Assembly (NCBI GenBank): GCA_027023025.1
Contig: JALVXB010000001.1
Span: 3,645-67,644, forward strand
Reading direction: 5' to 3'
DNA: 64,000 nt
Source: Caldisericaceae bacterium
Lineage (GTDB): Bacteria; Caldisericota; Caldisericia; Caldisericales; Caldisericaceae
The translations under genes were made by a program, and so were the position numbers. Shown here one piece after another: positions 1 to 56,143 of this stretch (its first letter is position 1; each line of letters begins with the position of its first letter). The notes below the pieces were generated by a model that was not told where the DNA came from, ran no database searches, and saw nothing but the letters and a program-made list of their open reading frames with translations.

Positions 1-8
1 CGGACAGG

Positions 9-545
9 ATGCCAAAGGAATACAAAATTGCCCTGTATGCAATTTTTATAGGGATAACATACTTCTTTTTGTATTCTCTGGTGTTTTACGGAAAGTTTAA
101 GTATGTGCCGTTCTTTTTGATTTCGCTTGGAGTGGTGCTTTTGTTTGGGGTGCCGGCACTGTTTCTTTTGAAAAAAGCAAACTGGGCGCGCATACTTTTA
201 GGGATAACTTCTGCATTTTTTGCACTGCTCTTTGCAGGCATTTCCGTGCTGCTTATATTTTTTAAGCAAAGTACTATTATTCTTGCAAAAGCGCTCCACA
301 CGGGAGTGTTTACCTTTTATGTACTGCTAGGACAATTAAGGACGACGCCTGACAAAGGGGCGGTTGCGGCAATTCTCATTGCAGTGTGGAACGGGCTCGT
401 TGCGTATTTGCTGTTTCACAAAGAAACGCGCAGGTACACGGTTGAGAAAACTTACCCTGAGGTAGATACCCGCAAAGAAACGACCGCTGCAATTATCGTA
501 ATGTTTATCGTAATTGCCGCACTGTACACGCTGGTGCGTTTTTAA
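9..545 (+). CDS. hypothetical polytopic membrane protein
   Basis: 178-aa ORF made almost entirely of hydrophobic helical segments (ALYAIFIGITYFFLYSLVFY, FFLISLGVVLLFGVPALFLL, ILLGITSAFFALLFAGISVLLIFF). No family motif recognised. Upstream context is cut by the window edge. Confidence 0.5.
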   Translation: MPKEYKIALYAIFIGITYFFLYSLVFYGKFKYVPFFLISLGVVLLFGVPALFLLKKANWARILLGITSAFFALLFAGISVLLIFFKQSTIILAKALHTGVFTFYVLLGQLRTTPDKGAVAAILIAVWNGLVAYLLFHKETRRYTVEKTYPEVDTRKETTAAIIVMFIVIAALYTLVRF

Positions 546-1143
546 CTTTGGGCCTTGCCTAACAGAAGTTAAGGCTATTTTATAGCTGATTTGTAACCGT
601 CCGCTGGCTAATTCCTTTTTGAGTTTTCACCAGGATTTAATTACGGAGAGCATTATGTTGCTATTTTTTAGGCTGGGGCAAAAATCCTCCGCAAGGTGTT
701 ACACTTTACTTATGAATGAATAATTTCCTCCTTATAATATATATTACCTCCGTAAGTACACGGCATAAAGTGCATTGTAACTACGGACAAAATAGTTGGA
801 CACTGTGAAAATCTTACTCTACTATTTTTAAATCACAAAATTATAAGATTTCGGGTTTATATGCGGGTTGAGGGCAAAAGTTCAAAAATCTATGTCGTCT
901 TACTTTAGTTTTTGCCGAGAGTTTTTTTGTATAGTTTAATCAGGACAAATAAAAAATGAGTTTATTTGGGGGTTGTGATTCTTGCAGGTAGTTTGTAAAT
1001 TTAACAAACGGTGCAAAGCAAAACCGTTTTAAAGTTACTTTACATTCCGACAGAGAATAATTGATTATGGAAAGGGGAGTTTGTGGTGAAAGGTTGCCCT
1101 GCAAATTTTTGTTATCGTTTTAACAATATACATCTTCTAGTAG

Positions 1144-1409
1144 GTCCCTCTGAGCGCGGCGAAGAGTCTCTGCCTTAACGGCAAACCTTTTTGGTGGGTC
1201 ATGCTGAACTCAGCGAAGCATCTCTGCCTTAACAACCATACCTTTTGAAAAGTGTAACTAACAAGTCCCTCTGAGCGCAGCGAAGCATCTCTGCCTTAAC
1301 GGCAAACCTTTTTGGTGGGTCATGCTGAACTCAGTGAAGCATCTCTGCCTTAACGACGAACATCCCTCAGTGTGTCACTCTGAGTGCAGCGAAGCATCTC
1401 TGCCTTAAC
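1144..1409 (+). repeat. cluster of five 36-bp family-A repeats (about GTCNNNCTGAGYGMAGCGAAGMRTCTCTGCCTTAAC; positions 4-6 vary)
   Basis: Copies read directly at 1144-1179, 1198-1233, 1265-1300, 1319-1354 and 1374-1409. Segment 1144-1233 recurs almost perfectly at 1265-1354 (121-bp period), indicating a local tandem duplication. Confidence 0.9.
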
Positions 1410-1538
1410 AACTTTCCCTATAAATCCCTATTCCTATAGGTTTTCTATTCTTTCTCAAAACTTTTTTAAAAATTCTGCAAAATTCTTCCAAAATCGCGGA
1501 ACTTTTTCCTTTGAAATCCGTCTAATGTATAGAGGTGC
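1410..1538 (+). repeat. family-B repeat module (promoter-bearing), copy 1
   Basis: AACTTTCCCTATAAATCCCTATTCCTATAGGTTTTCTATTCTTTCTCAAAACTTTTTTAAAAATTCTGCAAAATTCTTCCAAAATCGCGGAACTTTTT..CCGTCTAATGTATAGAGGTGC. It is collinear with 3005-3117, 8719-8844 and the reverse complement of 55854-55940. Confidence 0.9.
1498..1522 (+). promoter_or_regulatory. ECF-sigma-type promoter candidate GGAAC-N16-CGTC
   Basis: GGAAC at 1498-1502, a 16-nt spacer at 1503-1518, CGTC at 1519-1522 followed by TAATGTATAG. It lies 110 nt upstream of ATG 1632. The same -35/-10 geometry occurs in all copies of the module. Confidence 0.6.
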
Positions 1539-1631
1539 GAAATTCTGCAGATGAAAATGAAGATTGTGCCGTTAAGTTGCACGAGTTTTTGCAGAGCAAA
1601 GTTTCAAAACAAACTTAATAGGAGGAAAATT

Positions 1632-2651
1632 ATGAAAAAGACTTCAAAAGTTCTTTTGCTGGCGCTATTGGTAAGTATATTTATTCTTCCCCTTGCAGGT
1701 TGCAGAGAAGTTAAGCAAAGCACAGGTAACGGGAATACACCTTTTACGAGCCCTCCAAAAGTAGAAGTGGAGAAGGTAGCGCTTCCTGAAAATGTTCTGC
1801 CTTTGTACATAAACGAGCAAAAGCACATTATTATCGCAGCAAAGCACCTTCCCGACACGGGGAAAAGCGACATCCTCAGAGGAAGCAGCATCCAGAACCT
1901 TAAAATAGTGCTAAAGGGAGTTGACTTTCCAGTATACGAACTTTTCGTAAGCTCGTTTAACGAAAGCGAAATGTGTTTGTTAGGCCTGAATAAAATTTAC
2001 TTCAGCAAAGACTTCGGGAAAAGCTGGAACTCAACGAACAACTCGTTTAACTTTTCAACTATGGGGTTTTCTCCTGAGCGGACGATGTACTTTGCAGGAC
2101 CTGGCGCAAGGAGGCCGTGCTACATCTACAAATCAACTGACGGCACACACTTTACGGAAGTTTACAAACCGCATCCGTACCACGATGTCGTATTCTTTAC
2201 ATTCAACCCTCGCGACGCGCACACTATCTGGACATTTGGGGAGTACGGAGTTTTTGTAAGCAAAGATTCTGGCAGGACATTCAAAAACTTAAACGCACCT
2301 GACAGGGCATACACTCCCGGCACACTCAACCCGTATAACTATAGTGAAGCGTATGTAGGGCTGGGTAACTACGGTTTATACAAAGTAAGTGAAAGTGGAA
2401 CAATAACGCCCGTTTATGTAGTAAAGCAGCCTCTGGAGCGTTTCGTATCCGTAGTAACGGACTTTCAGCGCAAGATTACTTATGCAATAGACGATAACGG
2501 CAATCTTTTCTGCATTTTGAAAGATAAAGCCTACAAACTCTACACGATGAAGAACATACATTCTATAAAACTGCTTCTGGAAAAAGATTCGGGCAATTTA
2601 TACATACTTTGCTATTCTGCTTACTACAAGGTAAAGGTTCAGCAACACTGA
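1632..2651 (+). CDS. BNR/Asp-box repeat lipoprotein (Ycf48-like beta-propeller)
   Basis: RBS TAGGAGGA precedes ATG 1632, which is the internal Met28 of track ORF 1551-2651. Signal peptide MKKTSKVLLLALLVSIFILPLAGC has a lipobox. Asp-box-like motifs are FSKDFGKSW, YKSTDGTHF and VSKDSGRTF. Confidence 0.7.
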   Translation: MKKTSKVLLLALLVSIFILPLAGCREVKQSTGNGNTPFTSPPKVEVEKVALPENVLPLYINEQKHIIIAAKHLPDTGKSDILRGSSIQNLKIVLKGVDFPVYELFVSSFNESEMCLLGLNKIYFSKDFGKSWNSTNNSFNFSTMGFSPERTMYFAGPGARRPCYIYKSTDGTHFTEVYKPHPYHDVVFFTFNPRDAHTIWTFGEYGVFVSKDSGRTFKNLNAPDRAYTPGTLNPYNYSEAYVGLGNYGLYKVSESGTITPVYVVKQPLERFVSVVTDFQRKITYAIDDNGNLFCILKDKAYKLYTMKNIHSIKLLLEKDSGNLYILCYSAYYKVKVQQH

Positions 2652-2756
2652 CGAAGTAATTTTGCTTGTTTATTTATAAGCAGTGTAGTATTGTTTCTCA
2701 AATTTACGGGAAGAAATAAACTTCGTGTGCTTTCCATTGGAAGTTACTTTGAGGAC

Positions 2757-3004
2757 GGAGAAGTATTTTGCCTTAACAACGATGTATTTAGGAAAGCGCA
2801 GCCAACAGATCTTTTATATTTTATTCTTTGTAAACCTGTTTTTCTTAGTCTTCTCTCGTTTTGTTTTCTACTTCCTGAGGAAGAAAAGTTAGAAAGGAAA
2901 CCTCGTGTCCGCTCTAACGATTAAGGTCCTTCGCTCGCTAACGCTCGCTCGAGGACGACCACCCCGCTGTCACTCTGAGTGCAGCGAAGAGTCTCTGCCT
3001 TAAC
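2757..3004 (+). repeat. composite repeat (degenerate A copy, T-rich module, module C, family-A copy)
   Basis: Module C (GGAAACCTCGTGTCCGCTCTAA..AGGTCCTTCGCTCGCTAACGCTCGCTCGAGGACGAC) is at 2896-2960 and a family-A copy at 2969-3004. The whole stretch is collinear with 8333-8718. Confidence 0.7.
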
Positions 3005-3117
3005 AACTTTCCCTATAAATCCTCGTTCTGACAGGTTTTCTGCCATCTTCCAAAAACTTTTTAAAAATTCTTATAAAATTGCGGAACTTTTTCCTTTGAA
3101 ATCCGTCTAATGTATAG
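3005..3117 (+). repeat. family-B repeat module, copy 2
   Basis: AACTTTCCCTATAAATCC...AAAACTTTTTAAAAATTCTTATAAAATTGCGGAACTTTTTCCTTTGAAATCCGTCTAATGTATAG. Confidence 0.9.
3083..3107 (+). promoter_or_regulatory. ECF-sigma-type promoter candidate GGAAC-N16-CGTC
   Basis: GGAAC at 3083-3087, a 16-nt spacer, CGTC at 3104-3107. The spacer is identical to the copy at 1498-1522. Confidence 0.55.
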
Positions 3118-3156
3118 TTAGGGAAAAGTTTAAGATGAAAATTGTGAATGTTTGAC

Positions 3157-3207
3157 AAAAAATCGTGAAACTTTTTGTTGAGTTTTCCGTCTATTGTATA
3201 GAGGTGC
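3157..3207 (+). repeat. family-B repeat, 3' (promoter) half only
   Basis: AAAAAATCGTGAAACTTTTTGTTGAGTTTTCCGTCTATTGTATAGAGGTGC is nearly identical to the 3' end of the 8719-8844 copy. Confidence 0.85.
3167..3191 (+). promoter_or_regulatory. ECF-sigma-type promoter candidate GAAAC-N16-CGTC
   Basis: GAAAC at 3167-3171, a 16-nt spacer, CGTC at 3188-3191. It lies 174 nt upstream of ATG 3365. Confidence 0.55.
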
Positions 3208-3364
3208 AAAAGTATGGACAGGAATTTTATGGGTAGAGCGATGTGCAAAAATGGCGTAAGGACAAGAAACGACCGTTTAAAGACGATATATGCGTACAAT
3301 TTATATTTTTGCGAAATCTATTGACGAGAGAGAGTATAAAATATAGATAAGGAGGCGAGCTGTT

Positions 3365-4171
3365 ATGAAAGGAAAGAAAATTGTTATTGCAGTGGTGATT
3401 GTCGTGGCTGTAGTTTCGCTTTCGTATTTTGCAGTGAAAGGCTTTGGCAGTGGATTTAGCAATTACGGAAGGGAATTGGGTGAAGTGATTGCTTCAAAGG
3501 ACAACCCGGTTGTTGCAACCGTAAACGGAATGCCCATATATCTGAGTGATGTTGCACTTCCGTACTTTTCGCAGGCTGTTTCCTATACGAGAAGCAAACC
3601 CGAATTAATGGATTACATTAACAGTCCAGGTACGAGCGAAGCAGAAAAAGAACAGGCAAAAGAGGCACTCTCCGATGTGCCAGATCCTGAAAGTGTAATG
3701 AACAGAGTGATAAACATAGCCCTGATAGACCAATATATGCTGAAAAAAGGCGTAAGAATTCCTGCTTCAGATATTACAGAGCAGGCCAAAAAAGCAGAAG
3801 CAGCAGTTAATAACTCAGGCGGTATGTGGAAAAAGTATCAGAGCGAACTGATAAAATCACTTGGGATAAGCGAGAGCGAATACTATTCAAAGTACTACAC
3901 GAGAATGTTAAAACAACTCTACCTGTGGAATATGTTTGAAAAGTCATTAAAGGTGCCACAGTTTACTGAAAGCGAGATAAAAAAAGAAATGACACAAACT
4001 CACGGAAATAGGGATATGGCAATTGCAATTCTAAGAAGTATCTATCTCGAAAAACAGACAGAACTCAAAGCAGAGACTCTCAGAAAAACGGCAAATATAA
4101 AAATCGTTAATAGAGATGTCGTTAAGGATCTTAAATCTTACTTCAGCAACTTATACGCGGCAAAACCGTAA
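3365..4171 (+). CDS. membrane-anchored SurA_N/PrsA-like chaperone-domain protein (no PPIase domain seen)
   Basis: RBS AAGGAGG. N-terminal TM anchor is KIVIAVVIVVAVVSLSYFAV. VATVNGMPIYLSDV resembles the SurA N-terminal domain opening. The rest is helical and charged. Confidence 0.5.
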   Translation: MKGKKIVIAVVIVVAVVSLSYFAVKGFGSGFSNYGRELGEVIASKDNPVVATVNGMPIYLSDVALPYFSQAVSYTRSKPELMDYINSPGTSEAEKEQAKEALSDVPDPESVMNRVINIALIDQYMLKKGVRIPASDITEQAKKAEAAVNNSGGMWKKYQSELIKSLGISESEYYSKYYTRMLKQLYLWNMFEKSLKVPQFTESEIKKEMTQTHGNRDMAIAILRSIYLEKQTELKAETLRKTANIKIVNRDVVKDLKSYFSNLYAAKP

Positions 4172-4187
4172 ATTTAAATTGCATGCA

Positions 4188-4209
4188 GGGGGGTGAAGAG
4201 CCCCTTTTT
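4188..4209 (+). terminator. rho-independent terminator candidate
   Basis: GGGG-GGTGAAGAG-CCCC followed by TTTTTA, 17 nt after the stop at 4171. The stem is short. Confidence 0.45.
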
Positions 4210-4456
4210 ATAAAGTCGAGTGAGCCCGTACATAAATTTATCATAGAGTGTAATTATCCTCCAGGCAAAAATTGCTACTTGCTCTGCAAATGTGCACCAA
4301 AACATACGATTAAATTGGCGCGTATCTGCAAAAAGTTCTCACCCACATAAAGTACATCGTTCTCAAAATTGCATAAATTCCACCACAGTTACTCGTGGAA
4401 CCCTTTTCAAAAAGCGAACTTACGGCAAAACTGCAAAATCTACAGAGAACATATAT

Positions 4457-4485
4457 TTGACAGCGGTTGAAATATCTGTTAAAAT
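4457..4485 (+). promoter_or_regulatory. sigma-70-type promoter TTGACA-N17-TAAAAT
   Basis: TTGACA at 4457-4462, a 17-nt spacer, TAAAAT at 4480-4485. It lies 47 nt upstream of ATG 4532. Confidence 0.7.
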
Positions 4486-4531
4486 CTTATGATGCCATAT
4501 GAGTAAAATTAATCAAAAGGAGGGGTATAAG

Positions 4532-5155
4532 ATGAACAACGCACTACTGTGGGTGCTCGGAGCGGTAGCAGTCGTAATTATCGTCCTGTTGCTCGTTCCA
4601 GGTAAAGAGTCTAAAGAAAAGAGGGAAGAGATTTACCATAGCGAGGGAGAAGAATCCGCACTAAGCAAGAAGATAGCATCTCTGCTCAAAAAGGCAAGAC
4701 AGGAATTTATTTTGCTGAATAACTTCACGCTAAAAGGGTGGATAAAGCACACAGCAACGATTCAGCACTTGCTTATTACTAAGAAAGGTCTTTACATATT
4801 CCACACATTTACTGGTGAGGGCACGAAGTCGCTTCGCGTTAAAGACGGCGAGTGGTTCGAACAGACTGAGAGCGGCGAAAAGAAAATCAAAAATCCGATC
4901 AACATGAACAACTACCGCATCAATGTGATCAGAAATATTTTGAAAAAGAAACTGGGCGCTCTTTACGACAAATTAGACTTCCGTTCCGTAATCGTGGTGA
5001 AGGACGACGCAGAGCTGCCCGTTTCGTCCGAAGAAAAAGGAAACACTATGCTCATAAAAGAGCAATTTATCCCGGACTTCGTCGACATGATCGCTCAGAT
5101 GGAAGACAAAATCACGATCGAGGAGATGCAAAAAGTTAAAGAAGCACTTACTTAA
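4532..5155 (+). CDS. membrane-anchored NERD-domain protein (catalytic residues apparently substituted)
   Basis: RBS AAAGGAGGGG lies 7 nt before ATG 4532 (Met12 of the track ORF). N-terminal TM is ALLWVLGAVAVVIIVLLLV. The NERD-like core is FILLNNFTLKGWIKHTATIQHLLITKKGLYIFHTFTGEG...NPINMNNYRINVIRNIL. Confidence 0.6.
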   Translation: MNNALLWVLGAVAVVIIVLLLVPGKESKEKREEIYHSEGEESALSKKIASLLKKARQEFILLNNFTLKGWIKHTATIQHLLITKKGLYIFHTFTGEGTKSLRVKDGEWFEQTESGEKKIKNPINMNNYRINVIRNILKKKLGALYDKLDFRSVIVVKDDAELPVSSEEKGNTMLIKEQFIPDFVDMIAQMEDKITIEEMQKVKEALT

Positions 5156-5625
5156 GCGTTCTGCAGTTCTTTCAGTTTTTCCAGTACGGCATCAACATGC
5201 CCCTTCACTCTTACTTTTCTCCAGACTGCCGCAACCTTTCCTCTGGGGTCGACGAGGAATGTGCTTCTCACGACGCCCATATATTCTCTGCCGTAAAGTT
5301 TTTTCTTCTGCCACACTCCGTACTTCGTCAGCACTTTGTGTTCGGGGTCGCTGAGCAGTAAAATTTCTAGGTCCTTTTTCTCTATAAAGCGTGCGTGCGA
5401 CGCGGGCGAATCCGGGCTTACACCGATAATCACGGCGCCTAACTTTTCAAATTCTGCTTTTTTCTCAGTGAAGCCTATTGCCTCTTTCGTGCACCCGGAT
5501 GTGTTGTCCTTCGGGTAGAAGTAAAGCACCACCCACTTTCCTGCAAAGTCCTTCAAACAGTGTTTCTTTTCGTCTTTGTCTTTCAGGCAAAAAGCAGGCG
5601 CCTTTTTTCCAACTTCGACTTCCAT
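5152..5625 (-). CDS. bcp: thiol peroxidase / peroxiredoxin Bcp (PrxQ type)
   Basis: Active-site context is VVLYFYPKDNTSGCTKEA. Length is 157 aa. RBS AAAGGAGG. Confidence 0.9.
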   Translation of the reverse strand: MEVEVGKKAPAFCLKDKDEKKHCLKDFAGKWVVLYFYPKDNTSGCTKEAIGFTEKKAEFEKLGAVIIGVSPDSPASHARFIEKKDLEILLLSDPEHKVLTKYGVWQKKKLYGREYMGVVRSTFLVDPRGKVAAVWRKVRVKGHVDAVLEKLKELQNA

Positions 5626-5628
5626 AAC

Positions 5629-5940
5629 TTACCTCCTTTGGTAGTTTTTAAACTTTACGATCTCGTCTATTTTATGATACAGATTTTTCAGCGAGGGGTA
5701 AACACTTTTGTAAACTTCCTCGTAAAGCGCATCTTGAGGAGCGCCTTTTACCACTTCCCTCATCGCTTTCTTTGCAAGGGCAAGATAAGATTCTGCGTCC
5801 TGCTCTGCAAAGTCCACTTTGCTTGAAGTGTACGGCACTGCGGGATAAATTTTCTCTGCACGCACGAAGCCGTTTGCATCAATTAAAAATGCTTTGACAT
5901 TCTGCGTGCCGCCGTCAAGCACGGCAAAAAGTTTGTCCAT
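5629..5940 (-). pseudogene. FGGY carbohydrate kinase remnant (N- and C-termini fused, core deleted)
   Basis: The 103-aa ORF starts like an FGGY kinase (LFAVLDGGTQNVKAFLIDANGFV...AEQDAESYLALAKKAMREV). It then jumps to the family's C-terminal tail (ALYEEVYKSVYPSLKNLY). About 350-400 aa of a normal roughly 500-aa enzyme are missing. Confidence 0.55.
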
Positions 5941-5969
5941 AGAAAAAGTATAGGCTCAATGTGAAAAAA

Positions 5970-6716
5970 TCAAAACTCTTTGCGCAGTAAGAGCACCAGG
6001 GAAAGAAGGACGAATATTAATGAGTAAACAATCGAAAGGGAAATTGCAGGCAAAAACTTGCCAAGGTAAAGGTACATAACGGAAACCCACTTCAGTGCGG
6101 AAACTTTCCCTATAAGAACCGTTGCAATGAGTGCGATAAGTGCAATGAGGCCGCCTTTTACGCGGTCGTTTATCACCACGGAGAACAAAAACGAAACGGA
6201 TACTACGGCGGCAGTTGCAAGTAGCGATTGAACGGCGAGCCTGTTAAAAACTGCCATATTTATCTTTTGAGGGATGGAGCGTGCAAGGAGCGGAATCGTG
6301 TAGGTGGATATTAAAATTGGTATTAAAGTTCCTAAGAGAATTACGGCGTACTTTACGAATAAAACCCGTGCGCGCGAAACGGGGCGCGAGAACAGGAATA
6401 TTGCGGTTTTCCTTTCCGTTTCTCCTGCAACTGCACCGATGCTGTTTATCACGCCAAAGAAAATTGCAAACTCAAAAAGGTTTTTTCCGAACCACTGCGA
6501 AACGACGAAAAAGTTCAGGTCGTTCAGTTTTGGAAGGAGTGCCTTTGCTTCTCCGTTAAGCCCTCCGCCTGGCAGGTTGCTGAGGAGCGGTGCAAGGTTT
6601 TTCATCATTCTGAACCCGTAAGGCACGAGGAATACTGCAACGGCCACTAAAATAGCAAACTCCACGACGAACTTTAAAAAGTTTTCCTTTAGTTCTTTTT
6701 TAAGCAGTGCGTCCAT
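5970..6716 (-). CDS. ABC-2 type transporter permease
   Basis: 248-aa protein with 6 TM helices. It overlaps the upstream ATPase gene by 17 nt. Confidence 0.7.
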   Translation of the reverse strand: MDALLKKELKENFLKFVVEFAILVAVAVFLVPYGFRMMKNLAPLLSNLPGGGLNGEAKALLPKLNDLNFFVVSQWFGKNLFEFAIFFGVINSIGAVAGETERKTAIFLFSRPVSRARVLFVKYAVILLGTLIPILISTYTIPLLARSIPQKINMAVFNRLAVQSLLATAAVVSVSFLFSVVINDRVKGGLIALIALIATVLIGKVSALKWVSVMYLYLGKFLPAISLSIVYSLIFVLLSLVLLLRKEF

Positions 6717-7605
6717 TTTCGCCTCCAGTTTCTCCGTTTATTGCATTCATAAATATCTCCTCAAAGGAAAGCGCGCGTTTTTCAAGAATTGTGCACCCGA
6801 GAGATTTAAGGCGCTCCAGCACCTCTTCAGCACCGCTTACGACGCTCAATGCGTAAAGCATCTTTTCTTTATTTAGAAGCTCTGCTCCGGGTACTTTTAC
6901 GGGCGCGTTCTTGCAGGTAAATGTAACGAAAAGTGAGTTTTCTTTCAGGGAGTCTATGTCGCCCTGTAAAACGAGTTTCCCTTTGTTTATCAAAATTGCG
7001 TAGTCTGCAACCTTTTCCACTTCGCTCAAAATGTGGGAAGAGAACAGCACCGTCGTTCCGTGTTCGCTCACGAAGTTAACCAGGAAGGAGAGGAAGCGGT
7101 CTCTAAAAATCGGGTCCAGTCCGTCCGTTGGCTCGTCCAAAATGAGAAGCTCTGGGTTTACGGAAACTGCAAGGTAAAGCGAAAGAAGTTTTTTCATACC
7201 CTTAGAGTACGAAGAGATTTTCCTATTCAAAGGCAAAGAAAATAGCCTCTGCAGTTCTGCAATCGTCCTGGTGTCAAATGCGCGGTAGATGGATGCGTTA
7301 AAGCTGAGGAGTTCTTCGCCGCTCATATACTCGTAAAGAGAAAATTCTTCAGGGACGAAACCGATTTTCTTCCGCACGGAAACTGCGTCGTAGTTGCTCG
7401 TTCCAAACAGCTTTACTGAGCCTTCGTCTTTGAACAAAAGCCCCAGCAAAATTTTTATCGTCGTCGTTTTTCCCGCACCGTTTGGCCCGACGAACCCGCC
7501 GATGTGCCCTTTCTCCAGCACGAACGAAAGGCCGTTCAGCGCTTTTACGCTTTTGTGCCTGTCTTTGTAAGACTTGCTGAGGCGCAAAACTTCTATAGCG
7601 TTCAT
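6700..7605 (-). CDS. ABC transporter ATP-binding protein
   Basis: Walker A is GPNGAGKTTT, the signature is YSKGMKK, and Walker B is LLILDEPTDGLD. Confidence 0.9.
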   Translation of the reverse strand: MNAIEVLRLSKSYKDRHKSVKALNGLSFVLEKGHIGGFVGPNGAGKTTTIKILLGLLFKDEGSVKLFGTSNYDAVSVRKKIGFVPEEFSLYEYMSGEELLSFNASIYRAFDTRTIAELQRLFSLPLNRKISSYSKGMKKLLSLYLAVSVNPELLILDEPTDGLDPIFRDRFLSFLVNFVSEHGTTVLFSSHILSEVEKVADYAILINKGKLVLQGDIDSLKENSLFVTFTCKNAPVKVPGAELLNKEKMLYALSVVSGAEEVLERLKSLGCTILEKRALSFEEIFMNAINGETGGENGRTA

Positions 7606-7925
7606 TTTTCCTCGGAAAGTTTTACTGCGGTGCCGTATGCAAAGAGTTCTGCTGCGCCCTGCATAACTGACGAAGTTGCAAAGCGCACATTAATCACGGC
7701 GTCTGCGCCGAGGCTTTCAGCGCTCTTTATCATACGGGCGATTGCTTCTTCCCGCGCGTCTTTCAAAAGTTCCGTGTACTCTTTGATTTCTCCGCCTGCA
7801 AGGTTTCTCAGCCCTGCAAGGATGTCTTTTCCGATGTTTTTAGCACGCACCACATTGCCCGTTGCAACGCCTAAAACTTTTTCTACCTTTTTGCCGGGCA
7901 CGAAGTCCGTAGTCGTGATAATCAT
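7602..7925 (-). CDS. YbjQ/UPF0145 family protein
   Basis: A 107-aa full-length match to the YbjQ pattern (TTTDFVPGKKVEKVLGVATGNVVRAKNIGKDI...GADAVINVRF). Confidence 0.8.
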   Translation of the reverse strand: MIITTTDFVPGKKVEKVLGVATGNVVRAKNIGKDILAGLRNLAGGEIKEYTELLKDAREEAIARMIKSAESLGADAVINVRFATSSVMQGAAELFAYGTAVKLSEEK

Positions 7926-8287
7926 CTTTTACCACCCCTTTCCTTTATTTTTTTAATAATTTCGTCAATGCTTAGATGTGCGCGTTCTGCTTCTATCAGG
8001 ATTGCGTCTATCAGTTTGTCTATGCGGGAGAGCGAAACTTCGCTTCTTTCCTTTGCAACGAATGTTCCTCTTCCAACAAATGTTTCTATTACGCCTTCTC
8101 TTTCTAATTCTCTGTACGCACGCGCAACGGTGTTCGGATTCACCGAGAGCATCTTAGCAACCTCGCGTACGGTGGGGAGTTTTTCTCCCTTTTCCAGTTC
8201 TCCAAGTGCTATCTGCTCTTTTATTCCTTCCATAATCTGCACATATATCGGAACGCCGCTGTGCACATTTATATATATCTTTAACAT
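7922..8287 (-). CDS. GntR-family transcriptional regulator, YtrA subfamily (short effector domain)
   Basis: wHTH region is PIYVQIMEGIKEQIALGELEKGEKLPTVREVAKMLSVNPNTVARAYRELEREGVIETFVGRGTFV. It is only 121 aa and is the first gene of an ABC operon. Confidence 0.85.
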   Translation of the reverse strand: MLKIYINVHSGVPIYVQIMEGIKEQIALGELEKGEKLPTVREVAKMLSVNPNTVARAYRELEREGVIETFVGRGTFVAKERSEVSLSRIDKLIDAILIEAERAHLSIDEIIKKIKERGGKR

Positions 8288-8324
8288 TGTATTAATACAA
8301 TACTACGATTTGGAAATTTGTCAA
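8286..8324 (-). promoter_or_regulatory. promoter (TTGACA-N17-ATTGTA) overlapped by a perfect 16-bp palindrome ATTGTATTAATACAAT (GntR-type operator candidate)
   Basis: The palindrome is at 8286-8301 and overlaps the ATG (8285-8287). The -35 TTGACA is the reverse complement of 8319-8324. There is no SD sequence between the -10 and the ATG. Confidence 0.55.
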
Positions 8325-8332
8325 GGGGAAGA

Positions 8333-8718
8333 GGGGAAGAGTTTCTGCCTTAATAACGAACTTTTAAGGTTGTCATTCTGAAGGAGCTTGCAAGTGAAGC
8401 ATCTCTGCCTTAAAAACGAAACATTAGGAAAAGTGCAGCCAGCGGCTTTTATCTTTTACCTTCTACCCCAATAGGAAGAAAAATTGGAAAGGAAACTCCG
8501 TGTCCGCTCTAAAGGGATGAGGTCCTTCGCTCGCTTGCGCTTGCTCGAGGACGACGGGGAGGGAGAAATCCTTCGCAAAGACGGCTCAGGACGACGGGAA
8601 GAGTAAGTACTCGTTAGCCCGACATATTGGGAGAAAACACTTCCAGAGTAAAAAAATAATTGAAAAAGGACGACCGCCACCCGTCACTCTGAGCGAAGCG
8701 AAGCATCTCTGCCTTAAC
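8333..8718 (+). repeat. composite repeat (partial A, A variant with insertion, T-rich module, module C, module D, A copy)
   Basis: The A variant is at 8372-8413 (GTCATTCTGAAGGAGCTTGCAAGTGAAGCATCTCTGCCTTAA). Module C is at 8491-8556. Module D is TCCTTCGCAAAGACGGCTCAGGACGAC. An A copy is at 8683-8718. Confidence 0.8.
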
Positions 8719-8844
8719 AACCTTCCCTATAAATCCCTATTCCTGTAGGTTTTCTATTCTTTTTCAAAACTTTTTTAAAAATTCTCGCAAAATTCTTTCA
8801 AAATCGTGAAACTTTTTGTTGAGTTTTCCGTCTAATGTATAGAG
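8719..8844 (+). repeat. family-B repeat module, copy 3
   Basis: AACCTTCCCTATAAATCCCTATTCCTGTAGGTTTTCTATTCTTTTTCAAAACTTTTTTAAAAATTCTCGCAAAATTCTTTCAAAATCGTGAAACTTTTTGTTGAGTTTTCCGTCTAATGTATAGAG. Confidence 0.9.
8808..8832 (+). promoter_or_regulatory. ECF-sigma-type promoter candidate GAAAC-N16-CGTC
   Basis: GAAAC at 8808-8812, a 16-nt spacer, CGTC at 8829-8832. Confidence 0.5.
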
Positions 8845-8960
8845 AGAAGGCACGGCAATCTGTGCTAAAGGCACTATAACGGGTGTAGGTTGTGCAAAGA
8901 AAAGTCCTTGATCTAAAAAAGGCAACGCTGCACCTGAAAAAAGCAAGGAGGTATGCGAAG

Positions 8961-9335
8961 GTGAATTTGAATGCGTATGTTGGAAAAGACAGTTTTAATG
9001 CTTTTACGCCTGATACACCGTCAGGCAGAAGCATTCTTTTAAGGAGCCTGCAGAGTGCACGAGTTGCACCTGTACTTTGGCGAAAGAGTAAGCGCTTTCT
9101 GAGCAAAAAGCAGTGTATCGTTACGCACCACATCCAATATAAACTGCACTGCTTGCAAAAAGAAAACTCTGGCAAAGTTTTTACGCAGGCTCTTTACAAG
9201 AGGGACATACGCACACCTGAAAATGCCGTTATTATTCGTCCACAACGAACTCCGTGCCTTCTCTCGAATCAGGCTTTCGCATATAAAAGCGTTTACAAAA
9301 GTAAAGCCGGCTTCGTCGCACTTTACCTGCAATAA
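8961..9335 (+). CDS. candidate very basic 124-aa protein of unknown function (weak call)
   Basis: AAGGAGG at 8945-8951 lies 9 nt before GTG 8961, in frame with track ORF 8892-9335. It is downstream of the ECF-type promoter. No family was recognised, and overlapping antisense ORFs of similar length exist. Confidence 0.25.
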   Translation: MNLNAYVGKDSFNAFTPDTPSGRSILLRSLQSARVAPVLWRKSKRFLSKKQCIVTHHIQYKLHCLQKENSGKVFTQALYKRDIRTPENAVIIRPQRTPCLLSNQAFAYKSVYKSKAGFVALYLQ

Positions 9336-9460
9336 CGGAAACGATAAGTTTGTGACGGACGGCAGTTAAAAGGCAGTTAAAAGCGTGAGTTGTGGCAACC
9401 ACGCCTGCACGGAATACAATTTTTATTGTAAGTAGTTGGCTGCCAAAAAGCACCCGTGAG

Positions 9461-10222
9461 TTATTCTTCCTCTATGCCTGCTTCCTTTCTAAGCCTTTCA
9501 AGAATTTCTGAAACATTGCCAAAGCGTGCGTTCTTTGCCTCTACCCGTTCAAGGTACTCGATTGCACCCTGCAAGTTGCCAAGTTTTGCAAGAGCAATTC
9601 CTATTCCAAACTGAATGGCAAGCTCGTCCTGCGTAAGTGCGAAACGCAAGGGGTCAAACTCTTTCAGCACATCGATTGACTCTTTGTATCTACCCAGGTC
9701 AAACAGGCAGGAACCAAGCAGACGCACCGTTTTAATGTCCCGTTTCTCCTCGGGAATTTTGCTGAGTATCTCCACAGCCTTTTTTACATTGCCTACATAG
9801 TAATACATCGCACCAACAATCAGGCGAAAGTAAGGCGTATCGAGTTGCGGGATTTTCTTCTCCAGAATTACGGCTGCCTTTTTATAGCTTGCAGGGTTCT
9901 TGCAGCGCCCACCAAAAAGTTTGGAAAGGTTATCCCTGTCCTGATTAAGTTTTGCAGATTCAAACAGAGCCTCTGCACCTTCTTTGCTCTTGCCCCTGTC
10001 CAGGTATGCTTTTGCCCGGGAAAGAAGCCGCGCACCTTTTTGTTCAGGTGAGAAAAGGTAAAGTATGTGGCCCGCAAATGTAACTACGAAAAGTATTATG
10101 CCAAGCTTTCGTTTGTCTGGAATAAGCGTCCCAAACACGGCAAAAATGTATCCTAAAATAATTAGCGTTGACGGAGAAACCGGTAAACTAAAACTTTTTA
10201 ACTTCTCTTTTAAATTTTCCAT
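9461..10222 (-). CDS. membrane-anchored TPR-repeat protein
   Basis: Two N-terminal TM helices (LIILGYIFAVFGTLI, LGIILFVVTFAGHILYLF) are followed by TPR-like helical repeats. RBS GGGAGGGAAG. Confidence 0.6.
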   Translation of the reverse strand: MENLKEKLKSFSLPVSPSTLIILGYIFAVFGTLIPDKRKLGIILFVVTFAGHILYLFSPEQKGARLLSRAKAYLDRGKSKEGAEALFESAKLNQDRDNLSKLFGGRCKNPASYKKAAVILEKKIPQLDTPYFRLIVGAMYYYVGNVKKAVEILSKIPEEKRDIKTVRLLGSCLFDLGRYKESIDVLKEFDPLRFALTQDELAIQFGIGIALAKLGNLQGAIEYLERVEAKNARFGNVSEILERLRKEAGIEEE

Positions 10223-10332
10223 TCTTCCCTCCCGTTTAAAGTTCGTTACTTTTTATTATAGCAAAACGCTCTGCATAAAAAACTTTCCTCGGAAGGTCGT
10301 CTCACCTGCATCCTTACGCTGAGAATTTCGTT

Positions 10333-10360
10333 TTGAAAATTCATTGCAAAATCGTAAAAT
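10333..10360 (+). promoter_or_regulatory. sigma-70-type promoter TTGAAA-N16-TAAAAT
   Basis: TTGAAA at 10333-10338 and TAAAAT at 10355-10360. The -10 ends 7 nt before ATG 10368 and overlaps the longer track start at 10344. Confidence 0.5.
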
Positions 10361-10367
10361 ACTTTTA

Positions 10368-13349
10368 ATGGATAAAAAGGAGATTGTGCTCAGTAAAAAA
10401 CCGCTACTTCCCGTGTACTTCGTGGACAGAGAAGCATTAAGGAGAAAAATCCTCTCTGCCGAACGCTTTGCCTTCATACAGGGAGGTGCTGGTTCTGGAA
10501 AGACGGTCCTTGCAGTTTCAGCCGTGCCCGACGATGCGATATATGTAAAAGTGGAAGAAGGGGCAAACGATACTGCACTGATCAAAACGGCAATTTCGAT
10601 CTCACGAATTCCGTTTTCCATAAGTGGCGCGTCACTTTCGCCTGACGAAAAACTCAGGGTGCTGCTTAAGTACTTCTTACAGAATGTAAAGAAAAGAAAA
10701 CGAAAGTTCTACCTCGTAGTTGACGACTTCCACAACTTAAAAAAGGGAAGCGAATCTTTGAAGTTCGTTAAACTTCTCGTTCAATATATGCCAGAAAATA
10801 TGAGGCTTATAATCATTTCCAGAAAAATGCCGCCCGTATTTATTATCAGGCACGGTGAAAGTGGTGTGATAATAACGGAAAGATCTTTAAGCTTCACTTT
10901 AAACGACACCGTAAAACTTGCAGAAAAAATGGACATAAACAATGCAAAAAACATTGCAGAAAAAGTTTTTGCGCTAACAAAAGGCTGGGCAGTTGGAACG
11001 GCACTTCTGCTCCGCACATACAGGGAAGAAGGCATCCTTAAAAAGGAATACCTGTTCGACTTTTTAATGGAGGAGGTATTCGAAAAACTTAGCCCCGGCG
11101 TACAGGACTTTCTTTTAAAAACAGTCCTCTTTAGTGAAATTTCACTGGACATTCTGCGAAACTATCAAAAGAGGATGCGCAAAGTTCTCGAGCAACTTTA
11201 CAAAAACGGCGTGTTCGTCTCAAAAACGGAAAACGGATTTATTTATCACGACCTGTTCAAAGAGTTCCTCATACGCAAATTGAAAGAAAACGGAACTTAC
11301 GAAAAAACGGTAAAGCGCACTGTCCTTACTTACCTGAAACTTGGCCGCAAGGAAGAAGCACTTGCCCTCTCTGGTGCGATAAACGACGCAAAAAGAATAA
11401 ACGAAATCCTTTCTCAGTTTCAAGAAAGAGAAGTTATTCTGTTTGCAGACACCGTTCTCAACGCAACCGAAAACCTTACGCAGGACACATTGAACGAATT
11501 TCCCAGAATTGCAATTGTGCGGGCGCGGGCGCTCCTCATAAAAAACAAACTGAATAGAGCACTCGCCCTTGCTTCTTCCGTTAAGTCCGACGAGAAAACA
11601 CTTGCAGACGCAGAGTTTTTGCTGCTGCAGATTTTAAACCGCACGGGCAGGTATAAAGAAGCAGTAAAAGAATTTATTCGTAGTAAGCCTCGTATTGACA
11701 AACTGAAAGAGGAAGGTAAGTATAAAGTTTACTACATGGGCTCTGAGGCTCTGTTTTACACGGGCAATTACGAAGAAGCACAGAAACTCGTAAGCGAAGC
11801 GTACAGACACAGAGAAAGCGTCTCTGACCCATTTTTAAAAACGCGTTTTATGAACGCTTACGCCGTGCTGATGTTCCACAACAAAGGAAAGTATAAAGAG
11901 GCAATAAACATTTACAGACAGATCATAGGAATAGCAAGAGAACGGAAAATTATTATTGACCCAATTATATTTACGAACATTGCATACTGTGAAATGGGTA
12001 TAGGGGACTACGAAAGTGCCGAGAAACACATAAAGCTTGCAATGGAGACATGCGAAAAGTTTGGGTGGAGCAAACGATTTACTTCCTCACAAATTGCATA
12101 CGGATACTTCCTTATAGAAAAACGCAACCTTGAAAAGGCGGAGTCGATCTTCAGTACGCTTGAAAAAGAAGAAGACATTTATGTGAAGTCTGCTGCACTT
12201 CTGGGTCTCTCTGAAACGCACAGAAAACAGGGAAAGTTTGACGAGGCCCTGACATACGAAGAAAAAGACTACAAAATATCAAAAGCACTGAAGAACGCGA
12301 TGTTCATTGCACAGTCTCTGATAGAAATCGGGCTAATTTACTGCGGAAAGAAGGAGTACAAAAAAGCAGAAGATGCACTTCGCAAAGCCGTCGAGTTTGC
12401 AAAAAAAGGCGAGAACATTTTTGAAGAGGCACGGGCACGGTTGTTTCTTGCGTGTACACTGTTTAAGAGGAAAAAGCGCTTTAAACGGGCGTTAAAAGAG
12501 GCAGAAAAACTCGTAAAAGAGAACGACTTCTACGGAATTTTGCACACTGAAAGGGAATACCTGGAGCAGTTTTTGAAAAAGGCATCTCCTTCGCTCAGCA
12601 CCCACATCGAAACGATGTTAAAGGAGCCTGTATACATAGAAACGCTCGGTACATTCTCCGTGAAGGTCAGCGGCACAGACGCTACGAAAACGCTTTTCAA
12701 AAGAGGAATGGAAAGAAAAATTTTTCAGTTTCTGCTGGTGAACTTTCCGCACCCCGTAAGTTACGACACTTTGATAGACACATTTTACAGAAGCGCAGAC
12801 TTCAAAAAGGCAAAGCACAACCTTAGCGTAATCGTGTCAAACATAAAAAACGCATTTGCACGCTTCGGCTGCGACATAATCAAGCGTCACGGAAACGGAT
12901 ATGTGCTAAATGTCTCTGCAGAGCAGGTGGACTTTACGGCGTTCGAGAAACTTTCAGAAAAAGGCCTTAAAGAAAAGGACGAAGAATTGCTGAAGAAAGC
13001 AGAGCAGCTGTACAAAGGCGACTTCCTTACGGAGCGCGTTTACGACGACTGGAGCACTGCAAAAAGAGAGATCCTATACACGCAGTACATGAAGGTGCTT
13101 ACAACGCTTTCTGAACTTACAGAAGGTGAGGAAAAGGAAGTTTACCTCACGAAGATTTTGCAAAAGGACAGTGCAAACGAAGAAGCGGCGTACGCACTGA
13201 TGCAGTATTATGTGTCTCAAGGAAAGACTAAAAAAGCACTGGATGTATACGGAAAAGTGAAAGCAGTGCTTAAAGGGGAATACGAGCTTGAGCCAGACGA
13301 AAAACTACAGACACTTTACGGAGAAATTGTAAAGAAAGAAGGCAGGTAA
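10368..13349 (+). CDS. STAND/MalT-like ATPase - TPR - C-terminal SARP (OmpR-type wHTH + BTAD) transcriptional regulator
   Basis: Walker A is GGAGSGKT and Walker B is FYLVVDDFH, followed by a long TPR region. The C-terminus has a wHTH (VYIETLGTFSVKVSG...GNGYVLNV) and a BTAD (LYKGDFLTERVYDDWSTAKREIL...ALMQYYVSQGKTKKALDVYGKVKAVLKGEYELEPDEKLQTLY). The start is uncertain: in-frame options are ATG 10344, ATG 10368 and GTG 10386. Confidence 0.8.
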   Translation: MDKKEIVLSKKPLLPVYFVDREALRRKILSAERFAFIQGGAGSGKTVLAVSAVPDDAIYVKVEEGANDTALIKTAISISRIPFSISGASLSPDEKLRVLLKYFLQNVKKRKRKFYLVVDDFHNLKKGSESLKFVKLLVQYMPENMRLIIISRKMPPVFIIRHGESGVIITERSLSFTLNDTVKLAEKMDINNAKNIAEKVFALTKGWAVGTALLLRTYREEGILKKEYLFDFLMEEVFEKLSPGVQDFLLKTVLFSEISLDILRNYQKRMRKVLEQLYKNGVFVSKTENGFIYHDLFKEFLIRKLKENGTYEKTVKRTVLTYLKLGRKEEALALSGAINDAKRINEILSQFQEREVILFADTVLNATENLTQDTLNEFPRIAIVRARALLIKNKLNRALALASSVKSDEKTLADAEFLLLQILNRTGRYKEAVKEFIRSKPRIDKLKEEGKYKVYYMGSEALFYTGNYEEAQKLVSEAYRHRESVSDPFLKTRFMNAYAVLMFHNKGKYKEAINIYRQIIGIARERKIIIDPIIFTNIAYCEMGIGDYESAEKHIKLAMETCEKFGWSKRFTSSQIAYGYFLIEKRNLEKAESIFSTLEKEEDIYVKSAALLGLSETHRKQGKFDEALTYEEKDYKISKALKNAMFIAQSLIEIGLIYCGKKEYKKAEDALRKAVEFAKKGENIFEEARARLFLACTLFKRKKRFKRALKEAEKLVKENDFYGILHTEREYLEQFLKKASPSLSTHIETMLKEPVYIETLGTFSVKVSGTDATKTLFKRGMERKIFQFLLVNFPHPVSYDTLIDTFYRSADFKKAKHNLSVIVSNIKNAFARFGCDIIKRHGNGYVLNVSAEQVDFTAFEKLSEKGLKEKDEELLKKAEQLYKGDFLTERVYDDWSTAKREILYTQYMKVLTTLSELTEGEEKEVYLTKILQKDSANEEAAYALMQYYVSQGKTKKALDVYGKVKAVLKGEYELEPDEKLQTLYGEIVKKEGR

Positions 13350-13664
13350 AGCATCCATCAAAGGCGAATACTTTTTTATGTCTCCTACTTTGCCTTTTAC
13401 CTTCACTCTGAAGTTTTTATTCCCCCGTTCTATTCTTTTAGTTATTCTGGAGATTTTTTCAATTGCTCTTTACAATCGCTCTGGCATTTTCTGGTACTCT
13501 GGTATTTTTTTCTTGTCCCTATTTTCTTGAGCGCTTCTATCAAACTTTCCATTTTACTTCTGTATTTTATCCAATCGCTTCTACACCTTTCCCGCACAGT
13601 CACATATTTTTTTGTTTCTCTTATTATACTTCGTCATCGAATAGCACAACTAATACTTATGGGA

Positions 13665-13903
13665 TCCTTCTCAAAAACGGCTCAGGACGACGGAGAGGAT
13701 GGTCACTCTTCGCTGCCCTAACGAAAACACATTTTGGCGGGTCATCCTGAACGAAGTGAAGGATCTCTACCTTAACGACCATACTTTTTGAAAAGCGTAA
13801 CTAACGAGTCGCTCTGAGCGAAGCGAAGAGTCTCTGCCTTAACAATCTTTGCTTTGTTTACATTGAAAACTGCATAAAATTTTGAAAAACGGCTCAGTAC
13901 GAC
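13665..13903 (+). repeat. repeat cluster (module D x2, degenerate A, two full family-A copies)
   Basis: Module D is at 13665-13693 (TCCTTCTCAAAAACGGCTCAGGACGACGG) and about 13885-13903. Family-A copies are at 13741-13776 and 13808-13843. The linker CCATACTTTTTGAAAAGCGTAACTAAC matches 1236-1262. Confidence 0.85.
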
Positions 13904-14018
13904 AAAATCACTACAAACAAACCCTGCATTTATCAGTGTTTATTTAAAAATCGCTAATTTAAGGTCCATAGACGCAAATCTTGAGAAAAATCGGGTAATT
14001 ATACCTGCAAAACGCGTT

Positions 14019-14073
14019 AAACGGCCTTATTTTAGGGCAAACGAAAATTGCAATAAAGCCTGTGTTTATCAGC
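14019..14073 (+). repeat. family-E repeat (AACGGCCTTATTTT..AAAATTGCAATAAAGCCTGTRTTTAT)
   Basis: A second copy lies at 56144-56207 on the same strand. A partial related motif CCTGCATTTATCAGTGTTT occurs at about 13923-13942. Confidence 0.7.
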
Positions 14074-14627
14074 ATTTCTCAAAAATTGCTCTGAAATTTT
14101 CAATTTGAATAAAATTAGCAAAAATAGAAACCCGCATAAATAAAGGTTTTTTAAAGGGTCGAAAGTGGGCAAAATCCAGCCGAAAAGCGAAAAATTGTTC
14201 GCATAAGGTAGAAAAACCAGCGAAGCAAGCAATTATAATGGCTAACGGCATTTTACATGCCTCTACATTACTGCACTATCCGGGACAATAGCAGATGCGT
14301 CCTTAATAACGCATTAGAACAATTACGATCTCACCAGGTATGCCACTGCAAGATACGAAATAAAAAATTAACTCACTCCGTAAAAACTTCTCTCTCCACC
14401 TTTTAAAGAAATTTCAGAACATTGCTGTAAAATACTCACACCACTTTGGTGTTCTTAACTGTAAAACTTTTTACGCTAAAGTGTAACTGCAATTTATAGC
14501 CAGGCACAAATCCAATTAACCGATACAATCTCGCTTTCAACGCGTCCAATAAAGAACGGTATTAATAACGGAAGATGCCTTACCTCCTTGGCAAAACACA
14601 GGTCGTCGATCGTATCCTCCACAGAGT

Positions 14628-22937: not shown

Positions 22938-23055
22938 CGTAATAACGCCTTCTTTAACCCCTCGTTTTTATGTATACTTGCTTCTTCCTTACCTATGTTA
23001 TACCAATATAAATCTTTTGCAAGAATCTGTTTTCCGTTGTTCAATAATTTCATCT

Positions 23056-25617: not shown

Positions 25618-25629
25618 TATCTTTTCCCT

Positions 25630-53608: not shown

Positions 53609-53642
53609 TTTTTGCCTCCTTGCGTTATGCGTAAATTTTTAA

Positions 53643-56094: not shown

Positions 56095-56143
56095 CTTGCA
56101 TAGTGAGGATCGTGTAGATAGAGATGCTCCTACAAAATGTATT

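Follow-up and report, generated by a model that had tools for sequence, protein, structure and literature searches.

A 64-kb stretch of DNA from a Caldisericaceae bacterium (contig JALVXB010000001.1; the whole analysed stretch is hereafter called the window) harbours five copies of a repeated module that carries the sequence GRAAC, a 16-nucleotide (nt) spacer and CGTCTA. These copies probably belong to a family of promoters that depend on a sigma factor of the extracytoplasmic function (ECF) type and that has spread through copying of the whole promoter region to positions before genes for exported proteins. An ECF-type promoter on a duplicated module had been proposed in an earlier note on this DNA, and the proposal is now supported by the geometry of the motif, its occurrence in 46 genomes outside the lineage, an ECF sigma factor in the lineage, the exported targets and the contrast with housekeeping promoters. 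The host is an uncultured, probably thermophilic member of Caldisericota; a relative carries reverse gyrase.

A motif search for GRAAC-N16-CGTCTA found five exact copies (0 mismatches) in the window, which read GRAAC-N16-CGTCTAWTGTATAG and lie at the places that the earlier note had given, and an additional match with one mismatch at 47085-47111 (minus strand) within a coding region. The total of six compares with an expectation of 1.78 ± 1.47, and none of 100 shuffles reached it. The surrounding modules, 80 to 130 nt in length as delimited by a repeat finder (families D4 and D5, inverted pairs I1-I3) and by alignment, are the following:

1410-1538, plus strand: module copy 1, with the −35 element GGAAC at 1498-1502, a 16-nt spacer and the −10 element CGTCTA at 1519-1524, then ATGTATAG; motif at 1498-1524.
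3005-3117, plus strand: module copy 2, the putative distal promoter of a tandem pair; motif at 3083-3109.
3157-3207, plus strand: module copy 3, the putative proximal promoter, 84 nt past copy 2; motif at 3167-3193.
8719-8844, plus strand: module copy 4; motif at 8808-8834.
55854-55940, minus strand: module copy 5; motif at 55866-55892.

Repeat finder and alignment agreed with two further statements of the earlier note, namely that the copy at 3157-3207 is a 3′ half only (it retains only ~12 nt of the 5′ flank) and that the spacer has two versions, TTTTTCCTTTGAAATC in copies 1 and 2 and TTTTTGTTGAGTTTTC in copies 3 and 4; the reverse copy 5 has the second version with GTCGAG. The 5′ flank of copy 1 (1453-1497) is rich in A-tracts. 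The spacer variant of copies 1 and 2, which lie 1.6 kb apart, was found in the window's genome only, and because it was found nowhere else sequence appears to have moved recently between the two. The invariant block reads AAAATYGY-GRAACTTTTT-(6 variable nt)-WTTTC-CGTCTA-W-TGTATAG. Conservation, which had been described as confined to the −35 and −10 blocks, is thus wider and spans AAAATYGY to TGTATAG.

From metagenome contigs and contigs of metagenome-assembled genomes (MAGs) of related Caldisericales, 22 further distinct copies were retrieved, giving 27 distinct full copies together with those of the window (loci retrieved from relatives or other genomes are denoted by L-numbers such as L002 and L003). 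The spacer is 16 nt long in all 27, CGTCTA is present in 27 of 27 and GRAAC in 26 of 27; six spacer positions differ in sequence among copies while the length remains constant. The −35 element takes the form CG-GGAAC or TG-GAAAC, with GGAGC (L073:1758) and GGGAC (in the more distant relative L003/L004) as exceptions. A scan of species-representative genomes found the module in the Caldisericales/Caldisericaceae MAGs L022, L023, L033, L040 and L044, and the module is also borne by L071, a 'Bacteroidales' contig that is probably mis-binned.

For a set free of ascertainment bias, 22 copies were re-collected by the upstream flank AAAATTCTTCCAAAATCG alone, with at most three substitutions, and conservation was measured in this flank-found set as minor-allele calls per site-copies:

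CGTCTA: 0/132.
TTTTT after AAC: 0/110.
TGTATAG: 6/154 (0.04 per site).
Spacer middle: 35/132 (0.27 per site).
Next 24 nt downstream: 147/528 (0.28 per site).

These counts bear on an alternative in which the module is a young dispersed repeat, for example cargo moving with elements that resemble repetitive extragenic palindromic (REP) units; the −35 and −10 elements would then be invariant through recency, their resemblance to ECF promoters accidental, and no transcription would start there. Homology among the copies does extend well beyond the two elements, several copies lie directly 3′ of a dispersed REP-like unit (8 in the window versus 0 expected), and the derived spacer common to copies 1 and 2 points to recent copying. 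Yet variation is uneven, with ~0.27 per site in the spacer middle and downstream versus none in CGTCTA and AACTTTTT, and in other species the two elements are retained in orthologous copies with replaced flanks: copy 4 and its orthologue in L023 have the same −35 and −10 with unrelated upstream flanks, and copy 5 and its orthologue in L018 differ in spacer and flanks with −35 and −10 the same. In addition, the readable neighbours are all co-oriented genes for exported proteins (in L015 with a gap of just 27 nt to the ribosome-binding site), and the motif marks ECF sigma/anti-sigma operons in unrelated phyla. An accidental resemblance is hard to reconcile with the conservation, the targets and the outside genomes, and we consider a mere young repeat improbable.

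Outside Caldisericales, the extended motif GRAACTTTTT-N10-CCGTCTAWTG was matched in 46 unrelated genomes of the species-representative scan, mostly Clostridia, where ~4 matches are expected by chance (our own rough estimate, given 1.2e12 positions and 19 specified bases). On the same strand, 42 of the 46 have an open reading frame (ORF) that follows a ribosome-binding site and begins 48-182 nt downstream; this ORF encodes a signal-peptide or membrane protein in 26 of the 46, an ECF sigma factor in 2 and, in 8, a zf-HC2 anti-sigma factor (Pfam E-values from 1e-6 to 1e-14). The motif is attached to an ECF sigma gene in 10 of the 46 genomes and, moreover, in a locus from a termite-gut metagenome (L012) that has the same order of sigma gene, motif and anti-sigma gene as Clostridia.

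The anti-sigma cases are all Clostridia MAGs (L027, L035, L037, L046, L050, L052, L056 and L066), where the gene directly 5′ encodes the ECF sigma factor and its final codons overlap the motif. As the overlap uses three different reading frames, the clostridial motif is a signal in the DNA rather than in the protein, and its interpretation as conserved coding sequence of the sigma 3′ end was ruled out on the same ground. Both L027 and L066 carry an additional GGAAC-N16-CGTCTGA 26 nt before the sigma gene. A predicted sigma-dependent promoter directly before the anti-sigma gene is a built-in negative-feedback layout in these Clostridia. Separately, the Acidobacteriaceae/Terracidiphilus MAGs L025, L057 and L064 bear the same motif, GAAACTTTTT-N10-GCCGTCTAATGAAGAA, 56 nt 5′ of a Lon-protease-like gene, and a long ORF of the sigma-70 family is found just upstream in L025 and L057.

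Two other classes of promoter were rejected. A sigma-70 scan of positions 1-14500 of the window returned no site overlapping the modules, whereas sigma-70-type sites were found beside other genes (TTGACA-17-TAAAAT at 4457, TTGACA-16-TATTGT at 8324, and also at 10333). A housekeeping promoter (TTGACA-N16-18-TATAAT) was discarded on the lack of such a site at the modules and the presence of canonical TTGACA/TAAAAT sites elsewhere in the window. A promoter for a single-subunit phage polymerase, suggested by the initiation-like TATAG block, was dismissed on the grounds that two conserved blocks enclose a variable spacer and that the motif stands at ECF operons.

If the modules are ECF promoters, each copy would direct RNA polymerase carrying an ECF (group 4) sigma factor. 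Region 4.2 of this sigma factor would bind the −35 element GRAAC(TTTTT) and region 2 would bind CGTCTA across the rigid 16-nt spacer, with transcription predicted to start ~5-8 nt beyond the −10, inside the conserved TGTATAG. The need of ECF sigma factors for near-consensus elements and a rigid spacer has been explained structurally (PMC6411747). These steps (sigma binding, start site) are modelled on known ECF sigma factors; the sigma factor that reads the motif, the inducing signal, the mode of spread and transcription itself are likewise inferred.

The most likely reader of the modules is an RpoE-like ECF sigma factor of 170 amino acids (aa), apparently the only one of its kind in the lineage. 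On the contig of a relative (L017), its gene precedes a module copy by 0.8 kb. The protein reaches 85 bits against TIGR02937 (cut-off 42.9) and has matches to both Sigma70_r2 and Sigma70_r4_2; an ECF sigma factor, on which the earlier note's proposal had been made to depend, is therefore encoded in the lineage. It is present in 11 retrieved lineage loci, nine of them at an identity of at least 90% and L074/L075 at 85%, and in a protein search its cluster at 90% identity or more has 24 members, with the next matches at no more than 32%. The operon is constant in the assemblies opened (dcd, a gene for a 187-aa multi-pass membrane protein, degV, degV and the sigma gene), and a module copy is located 0.7-1 kb downstream of the sigma gene in L017, L073 and L077. 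Among the sequences compared, its closest match is E. coli RpoE (29.5% identity), with which it has in common RIA(V/T)NTAK (region 2) and the helix (K/R)x(K/R)(L/I)FRxR (region 4.2). The −35 consensus of RpoE is GGAACTT. A hint that links the sigma factor to the motif comes from a single lineage: L003/L004, which carry the two GGGAC copies, derive from the same samples as the sigma factor of L074/L075, where Ile is replaced by Thr in the region 4.2 helix LFR[I/T]RKR.

The promoter may also be real but read by another factor, such as a second ECF sigma factor, another alternative sigma factor, or the housekeeping sigma factor together with an activator on the AAAATTCTTCCAAAATCG flank. Such a reader would fit a known sigma gene that lacks both motif autoregulation and an anti-sigma partner; an activator site or an UP element might account for the conserved flank 5′ of the −35, and the analysis covered parts of genomes of the lineage, which leaves room for other sigma factors. 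However, GRAAC-N16-CGTC is an ECF signature unlike TTGACA/TATAAT and the sigma-70 scan is silent at the modules, the sigma search gave one close family in the lineage (next at most 32% identity), and the pairing of GGGAC with Ile-to-Thr in L003/L004 and L074/L075 hints, in its single lineage, at the 170-aa protein. We regard another reader as unlikely.

In the window itself, as had been stated, no ECF sigma or anti-sigma gene was found: an iterated search of six-frame ORFs (seeded with the E. coli RpoE sequence) returned no sigma-like or anti-sigma ORF, and Pfam scans of 20 window proteins returned no sigma domain. The earlier note had also expected an autoregulated sigma/anti-sigma pair, and this expectation failed, for the sigma gene of the relatives stands in the dcd-degV-degV-sigma operon with neither a motif upstream nor an adjacent anti-sigma gene. 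The 320 nt before dcd in L077 end in TATAAT just before the start codon, which resembles a sigma-70 −10 element. Directly 3′ of the sigma gene, L077:10497-10718 contains six DnaA boxes (TGTGGAWAA / TTATCCACA) within 220 nt of non-coding DNA, and the same is seen in L017 and L073; this cluster is a candidate for the replication origin of the lineage.

Several observations weigh against ECF promoters read by this sigma factor. In L017, L074, L076 and L077, the 300 nt that precede the sigma gene contain no AAC-N16/17-CGT, and a broader motif scan of the whole loci L073-L077 found no copy upstream of the sigma operon; no zf-HC2 or other anti-sigma domain is encoded beside the sigma gene, which is followed by ~1 kb of non-coding DNA. 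The absence of both autoregulation and an adjacent anti-sigma gene is unusual for an ECF system. The sigma factor was seen in other assemblies of the lineage and is not confirmed in the window's own assembly, and its identity to the clostridial sigma factors associated with this motif is only 21-29%, so that a specificity common to both is unproven. Invariance reaches ~20 nt 5′ of the −35 and 8 nt 3′ of the −10, and since the copies have a common descent, some of this conservation is due to recent copying and not to selection. The density of sites is high for a stress regulon (4 sites per 64 kb in the window, 4 per 20.5 kb in L077). Finally, promoter activity is a prediction from sequence.

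The genes that the window copies face are the following:

1632-2651, plus strand: lipoprotein gene, target of copy 1; signal peptide with lipobox LAGC, weak Sortilin/BNR-like beta-propeller matches.
3365-4171, plus strand: gene for a SurA_N_3-domain protein, target of copies 2 and 3; membrane-anchored, PpiD/SurA-like chaperone.
8961-9335, plus strand: candidate target ORF of copy 4; 124 aa, basic, GTG start, AAGGAGG 9 nt 5′, conserved in L023.
52265-55776, minus strand: target operon of copy 5; four co-directional genes at 55462-55776, 54510-55379, 53643-54509 and 52265-53608.

Wherever the neighbouring gene is readable, in the window or in the relatives, the copy lies on the same strand as a gene for a signal-peptide or membrane-anchored protein, in accordance with the claim that the targets are mostly envelope genes. 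The claimed distance of 90-175 nt for four copies holds for copies 1, 3 and 5 (108, 172 and 90 nt, respectively, from the end of CGTCTA to the gene) but not for copy 2, which is 256 nt from the ATG at 3365. For the gene at 1632, described as a BNR lipoprotein, the lipobox is clear, whereas the BNR assignment is weak (26.9 bits against Sortilin-Vps10, below the family cut-off). The 3365-4171 protein has an identical copy on a 3.9-kb contig of the MAG GCA_027082015.1 and just three homologue clusters among 5.8 billion proteins searched. In the copy 5 operon, the first two genes were examined: gene 1 encodes a membrane protein and gene 2 a product with an N-terminal hydrophobic stretch like a membrane anchor; none of the four genes has an informative Pfam match.

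Copy 4 had been thought to face no confident gene. The ORF at 8961-9335, with its GTG start and AAGGAGG, offers a candidate: the window at 8840-9268 is ~95% identical to the Caldisericales MAG contig L023, with an in-frame indel of 6 nt and 3, 5 and 9 substitutions at codon positions 1, 2 and 3, respectively. The ORF has no Pfam match, and its status as a protein-coding gene is uncertain.

Among the targets in relatives, Pfam matched two Amidase_6 proteins (putative cell-wall amidases) and an Rv2525c-like glycoside-hydrolase-like protein, and others include a PQQ-type beta-propeller lipoprotein and several lineage-specific proteins. In L015 the distance from motif end to ribosome-binding site is 27 nt, which leaves scant space for another promoter. 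The genes driven would be those for lipoproteins, membrane proteins and a SurA-like chaperone, joined in relatives by genes for putative cell-wall amidases and beta-propeller lipoproteins; combined, these targets look like one envelope/secretome regulon.

Downstream of the promoter, relatives have a composite 5′ region of ~450 nt that recurs before different genes:

L073:1786-2447; L011:1635-2136; L013:2487-2946; L022; L023; L077:11548-12076: composite 5′ region.

It consists, in order, of a weaker promoter-like copy P2 (GAAACATTTTT..CATCTATATAAGTG) with CATC as a natural variant of CGTC, CTATTGACRAGAGAGAGTATAA, a ribosome-binding site with a tiny ORF MNVGG[VI]K..., and conserved leader blocks; its 3′ end, an inverted repeat GCTTTGCAAA...TTTGCAAAGT with TTTT after it, closely precedes the ribosome-binding site of the gene and could be an attenuator or a proximal TTGCAA-N16-TAAAAT promoter. 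The main product might accordingly be a non-coding leader or small RNA, with the promoter as the front of a ~450-nt cis-regulatory 5′ RNA that acts by attenuation. The P2, tiny ORF, leader blocks and inverted repeat with TTTT of the relatives would suit such an RNA, as would the ~430-nt conserved stretch after copy 4, whose coding status is uncertain. In the window, however, only CTATTGACGAGAGAGAGTATAA (3318-3341) of the composite leader is present, and the leaders of copies 1 and 5 and of L015 are short and unrelated, which argues that the promoter core is the shared working unit. Moreover, no Rfam match was found in the window or in six related loci (the window has no tRNAs either), and the alifold energy is weak, at −17. 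A leader RNA as the main product is very improbable, and an RNA of this kind would supplement an ECF promoter rather than replace it.

As to how the promoters multiplied, homology among the copies spans at least ~80 nt, and more than 130 nt in subsets, far above what independent ECF promoters share. The shared core runs from ~45 nt 5′ of the −35 to ~8 nt 3′ of the −10, with at least three upstream extensions and five downstream continuations, and copies repeatedly form tandem pairs at a distance of 63-85 nt, as do copies 2 and 3 in the window. The copies would then derive from one ancestral 5′ region of at least ~80 nt, often a tandem P1-P2 pair, and not from independent inventions; duplication or conversion would have carried this region from locus to locus, with gains or losses among related species. 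For example, the SurA_N locus has a tandem module upstream of the gene in the window and none there in relatives of 82-83% identity. In L003 (83% identity), a tandem module of the GGGAC variant is located downstream of the SurA_N gene (L003:1755-1933; the next gene is cut by the contig end), and the window counterpart of this site, 4457-4485 (plus strand), is an extended −10 sigma-70 promoter, TTGACA-17-TG-TAAAAT, before the NERD gene. At this intergenic position 3′ of the SurA_N gene, the predicted promoter type has turned over. In a relative of 94% identity (L002:1, GCA_054011935.1), the contig starts inside the module upstream of the SurA_N gene (TAGAGGTGCAAAAG...); as the module evidently breaks short-read assemblies, copy numbers in MAGs of the clade are underestimated.

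No consistent terminal inverted repeats were found around copies 1, 4 and 5, and no empty site was found from which a target duplication could be read. Given the lack of terminal inverted repeats and the ragged ends, a transposon was rejected; the description of the cassette as portable is apt for duplication and turnover between relatives but not in the sense of transposon marks.

A REP-like 35-nt unit accompanies several copies:

1374-1408, plus strand: REP-like unit GTCAYTCTGAGNGNAGCGAAGNNTCTCTGCCTTAA, directly 5′ of copy 1.
1144-1408, 2969-3003, 8372-8413, 8683-8717 and 13755-13864, and on the minus strand 56061-56095 and 58197-58520: locations of REP-like units.

The unit GTCAYTCTGAGNGNAGCGAAGNNTCTCTGCCTTAA also stands directly 5′ of copy 2 (2969-3003) and copy 4 (8683-8717); on the minus strand, at 56061-56095, it precedes copy 5 at a distance of ~170 nt. 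Searched as GTCAYTCTGAGCGNAGCGAAGNNTCTCTGCCTTAA, it has 8 window copies with at most three mismatches, where none is expected. REP-like units occur in intergenic DNA only, co-oriented with the adjacent module, and make up higher-order 121-nt repeats at 1137-1357. Companion repeats are AGGTCCTTCGCTCGCT..GCTCGAGGACGAC at 2922-2959, 8520-8555 and 58313-58350, and GGCTCAGGACGACGG at 8568-8597. It may be, as a guess, that REP-like units take part in the shuffling of modules.

Repetition is also seen in coding regions of the window. At 20416-28179 (minus strand), three tandem paralogous genes encode proteins of 839-853 aa; their 3′ ends (300 nt) are 96-97% identical and their starts are spaced by 2638 and 2574 nt, a pattern that suggests recent gene conversion or tandem duplication. 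In the gene next to them (28241-31063; 940 aa), a 39-nt unit occurs nine times, mostly at intervals of 126-135 nt.

Caldisericota includes a single cultured species, and the searchable literature describes no transcription signals for it; our literature search likewise found neither ECF promoters on dispersed repeats nor sigma factors of Caldisericota. For this phylum, a testable promoter class, a candidate sigma factor and a candidate envelope regulon are gained. The family would provide a natural example of regulon growth by whole-promoter copying instead of point mutation, traceable across close MAGs, and GGAACTTTTT-N10-CCGTCTAATG is a cross-phylum signature that is useful for regulon annotation in gut and rumen MAGs. 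How ECF sigma factors work is seen no differently in light of the module. A bolder extension, which we hold to be doubtful though worth stating, is that one orphan, non-autoregulated ECF sigma factor without an anti-sigma factor controls a large share of the secretome of a small thermophile genome via a self-propagating 5′ cassette, often with a second promoter and the ~450-nt leader, possibly at 100 or more sites; the sigma factor, whose gene adjoins the DnaA-box cluster that may be the replication origin, would then serve constitutive 'envelope housekeeping' and not a stress switch, and regulon growth by promoter copying would still be in progress.

Among known systems, the closest promoters are those for envelope stress, namely of E. 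coli sigma-E (GGAACTT-N16-TCAAA/TCTGA), B. subtilis sigma-W/M/X (xGAAAC/xxAAC-N16-17-CGTA/CGTC) and S. coelicolor sigma-E (PMC6767563). For the last, validated promoters read GGxAAC-N17/18-CGTCTx, for example GGGAAC-N17-CGTCTA, and about half of the regulon consists of envelope genes (PMC6767563). Promoters of this type resemble the module in the −35 AAC core with its T-rich 3′ side, in the −10 CGTC(TA) and in the fixed 16-nt spacer; their targets are likewise mainly lipoproteins, membrane proteins and cell-wall enzymes, and the sigma factor of the lineage is RpoE-like in regions 2 and 4.2. They differ in that they share two short elements only, whereas the module copies share at least ~80 nt, often more than 130, and are often in tandem; furthermore, the Caldisericales sigma gene has neither such a promoter nor a neighbouring anti-sigma gene, and the density of sites seems much higher.

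The EcfG general-stress promoters of Alphaproteobacteria, GGAAC-N16-17-CGTT, act with NepR/PhyR partner switching. They resemble the module in the GGAAC −35, the 16-17-nt spacer and the CGT-type −10, but their −10 is CGTT instead of CGTCTA, their regulon is one of general stress instead of exported proteins, and there is no sign of NepR/PhyR here. In the ECF sigma/zf-HC2 operons of Clostridia (Oscillospiraceae, Lachnospiraceae and others), the extended motif GGAACTTTTT-N10-CCGTCTAATG is identical to that of the module and stands before the sigma or anti-sigma gene and before many signal-peptide genes; unlike in Caldisericales, the phylum is another one, the motif is outside any longer repeat and the sigma/anti-sigma pairing is classical.

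The Correia repeat-enclosed elements of Neisseria (PMC2649163) and other small repeats or miniature inverted-repeat transposable elements (MITEs) that bear promoters are, like the module, short intergenic repeats that bring promoters to unrelated genes, and the presence of Correia elements also differs between related genomes. Correia elements, however, possess terminal inverted repeats, a duplicated TA target and an IHF site, and their ends bear promoters of the sigma-70 type, whereas the module has no terminal inverted repeats, ragged limits, a single orientation to the gene and an ECF-type promoter. Set beside these systems, the predicted promoter type is textbook, and what is unusual is its form as a repeated cassette, its high density and its orphan, non-autoregulated sigma factor.

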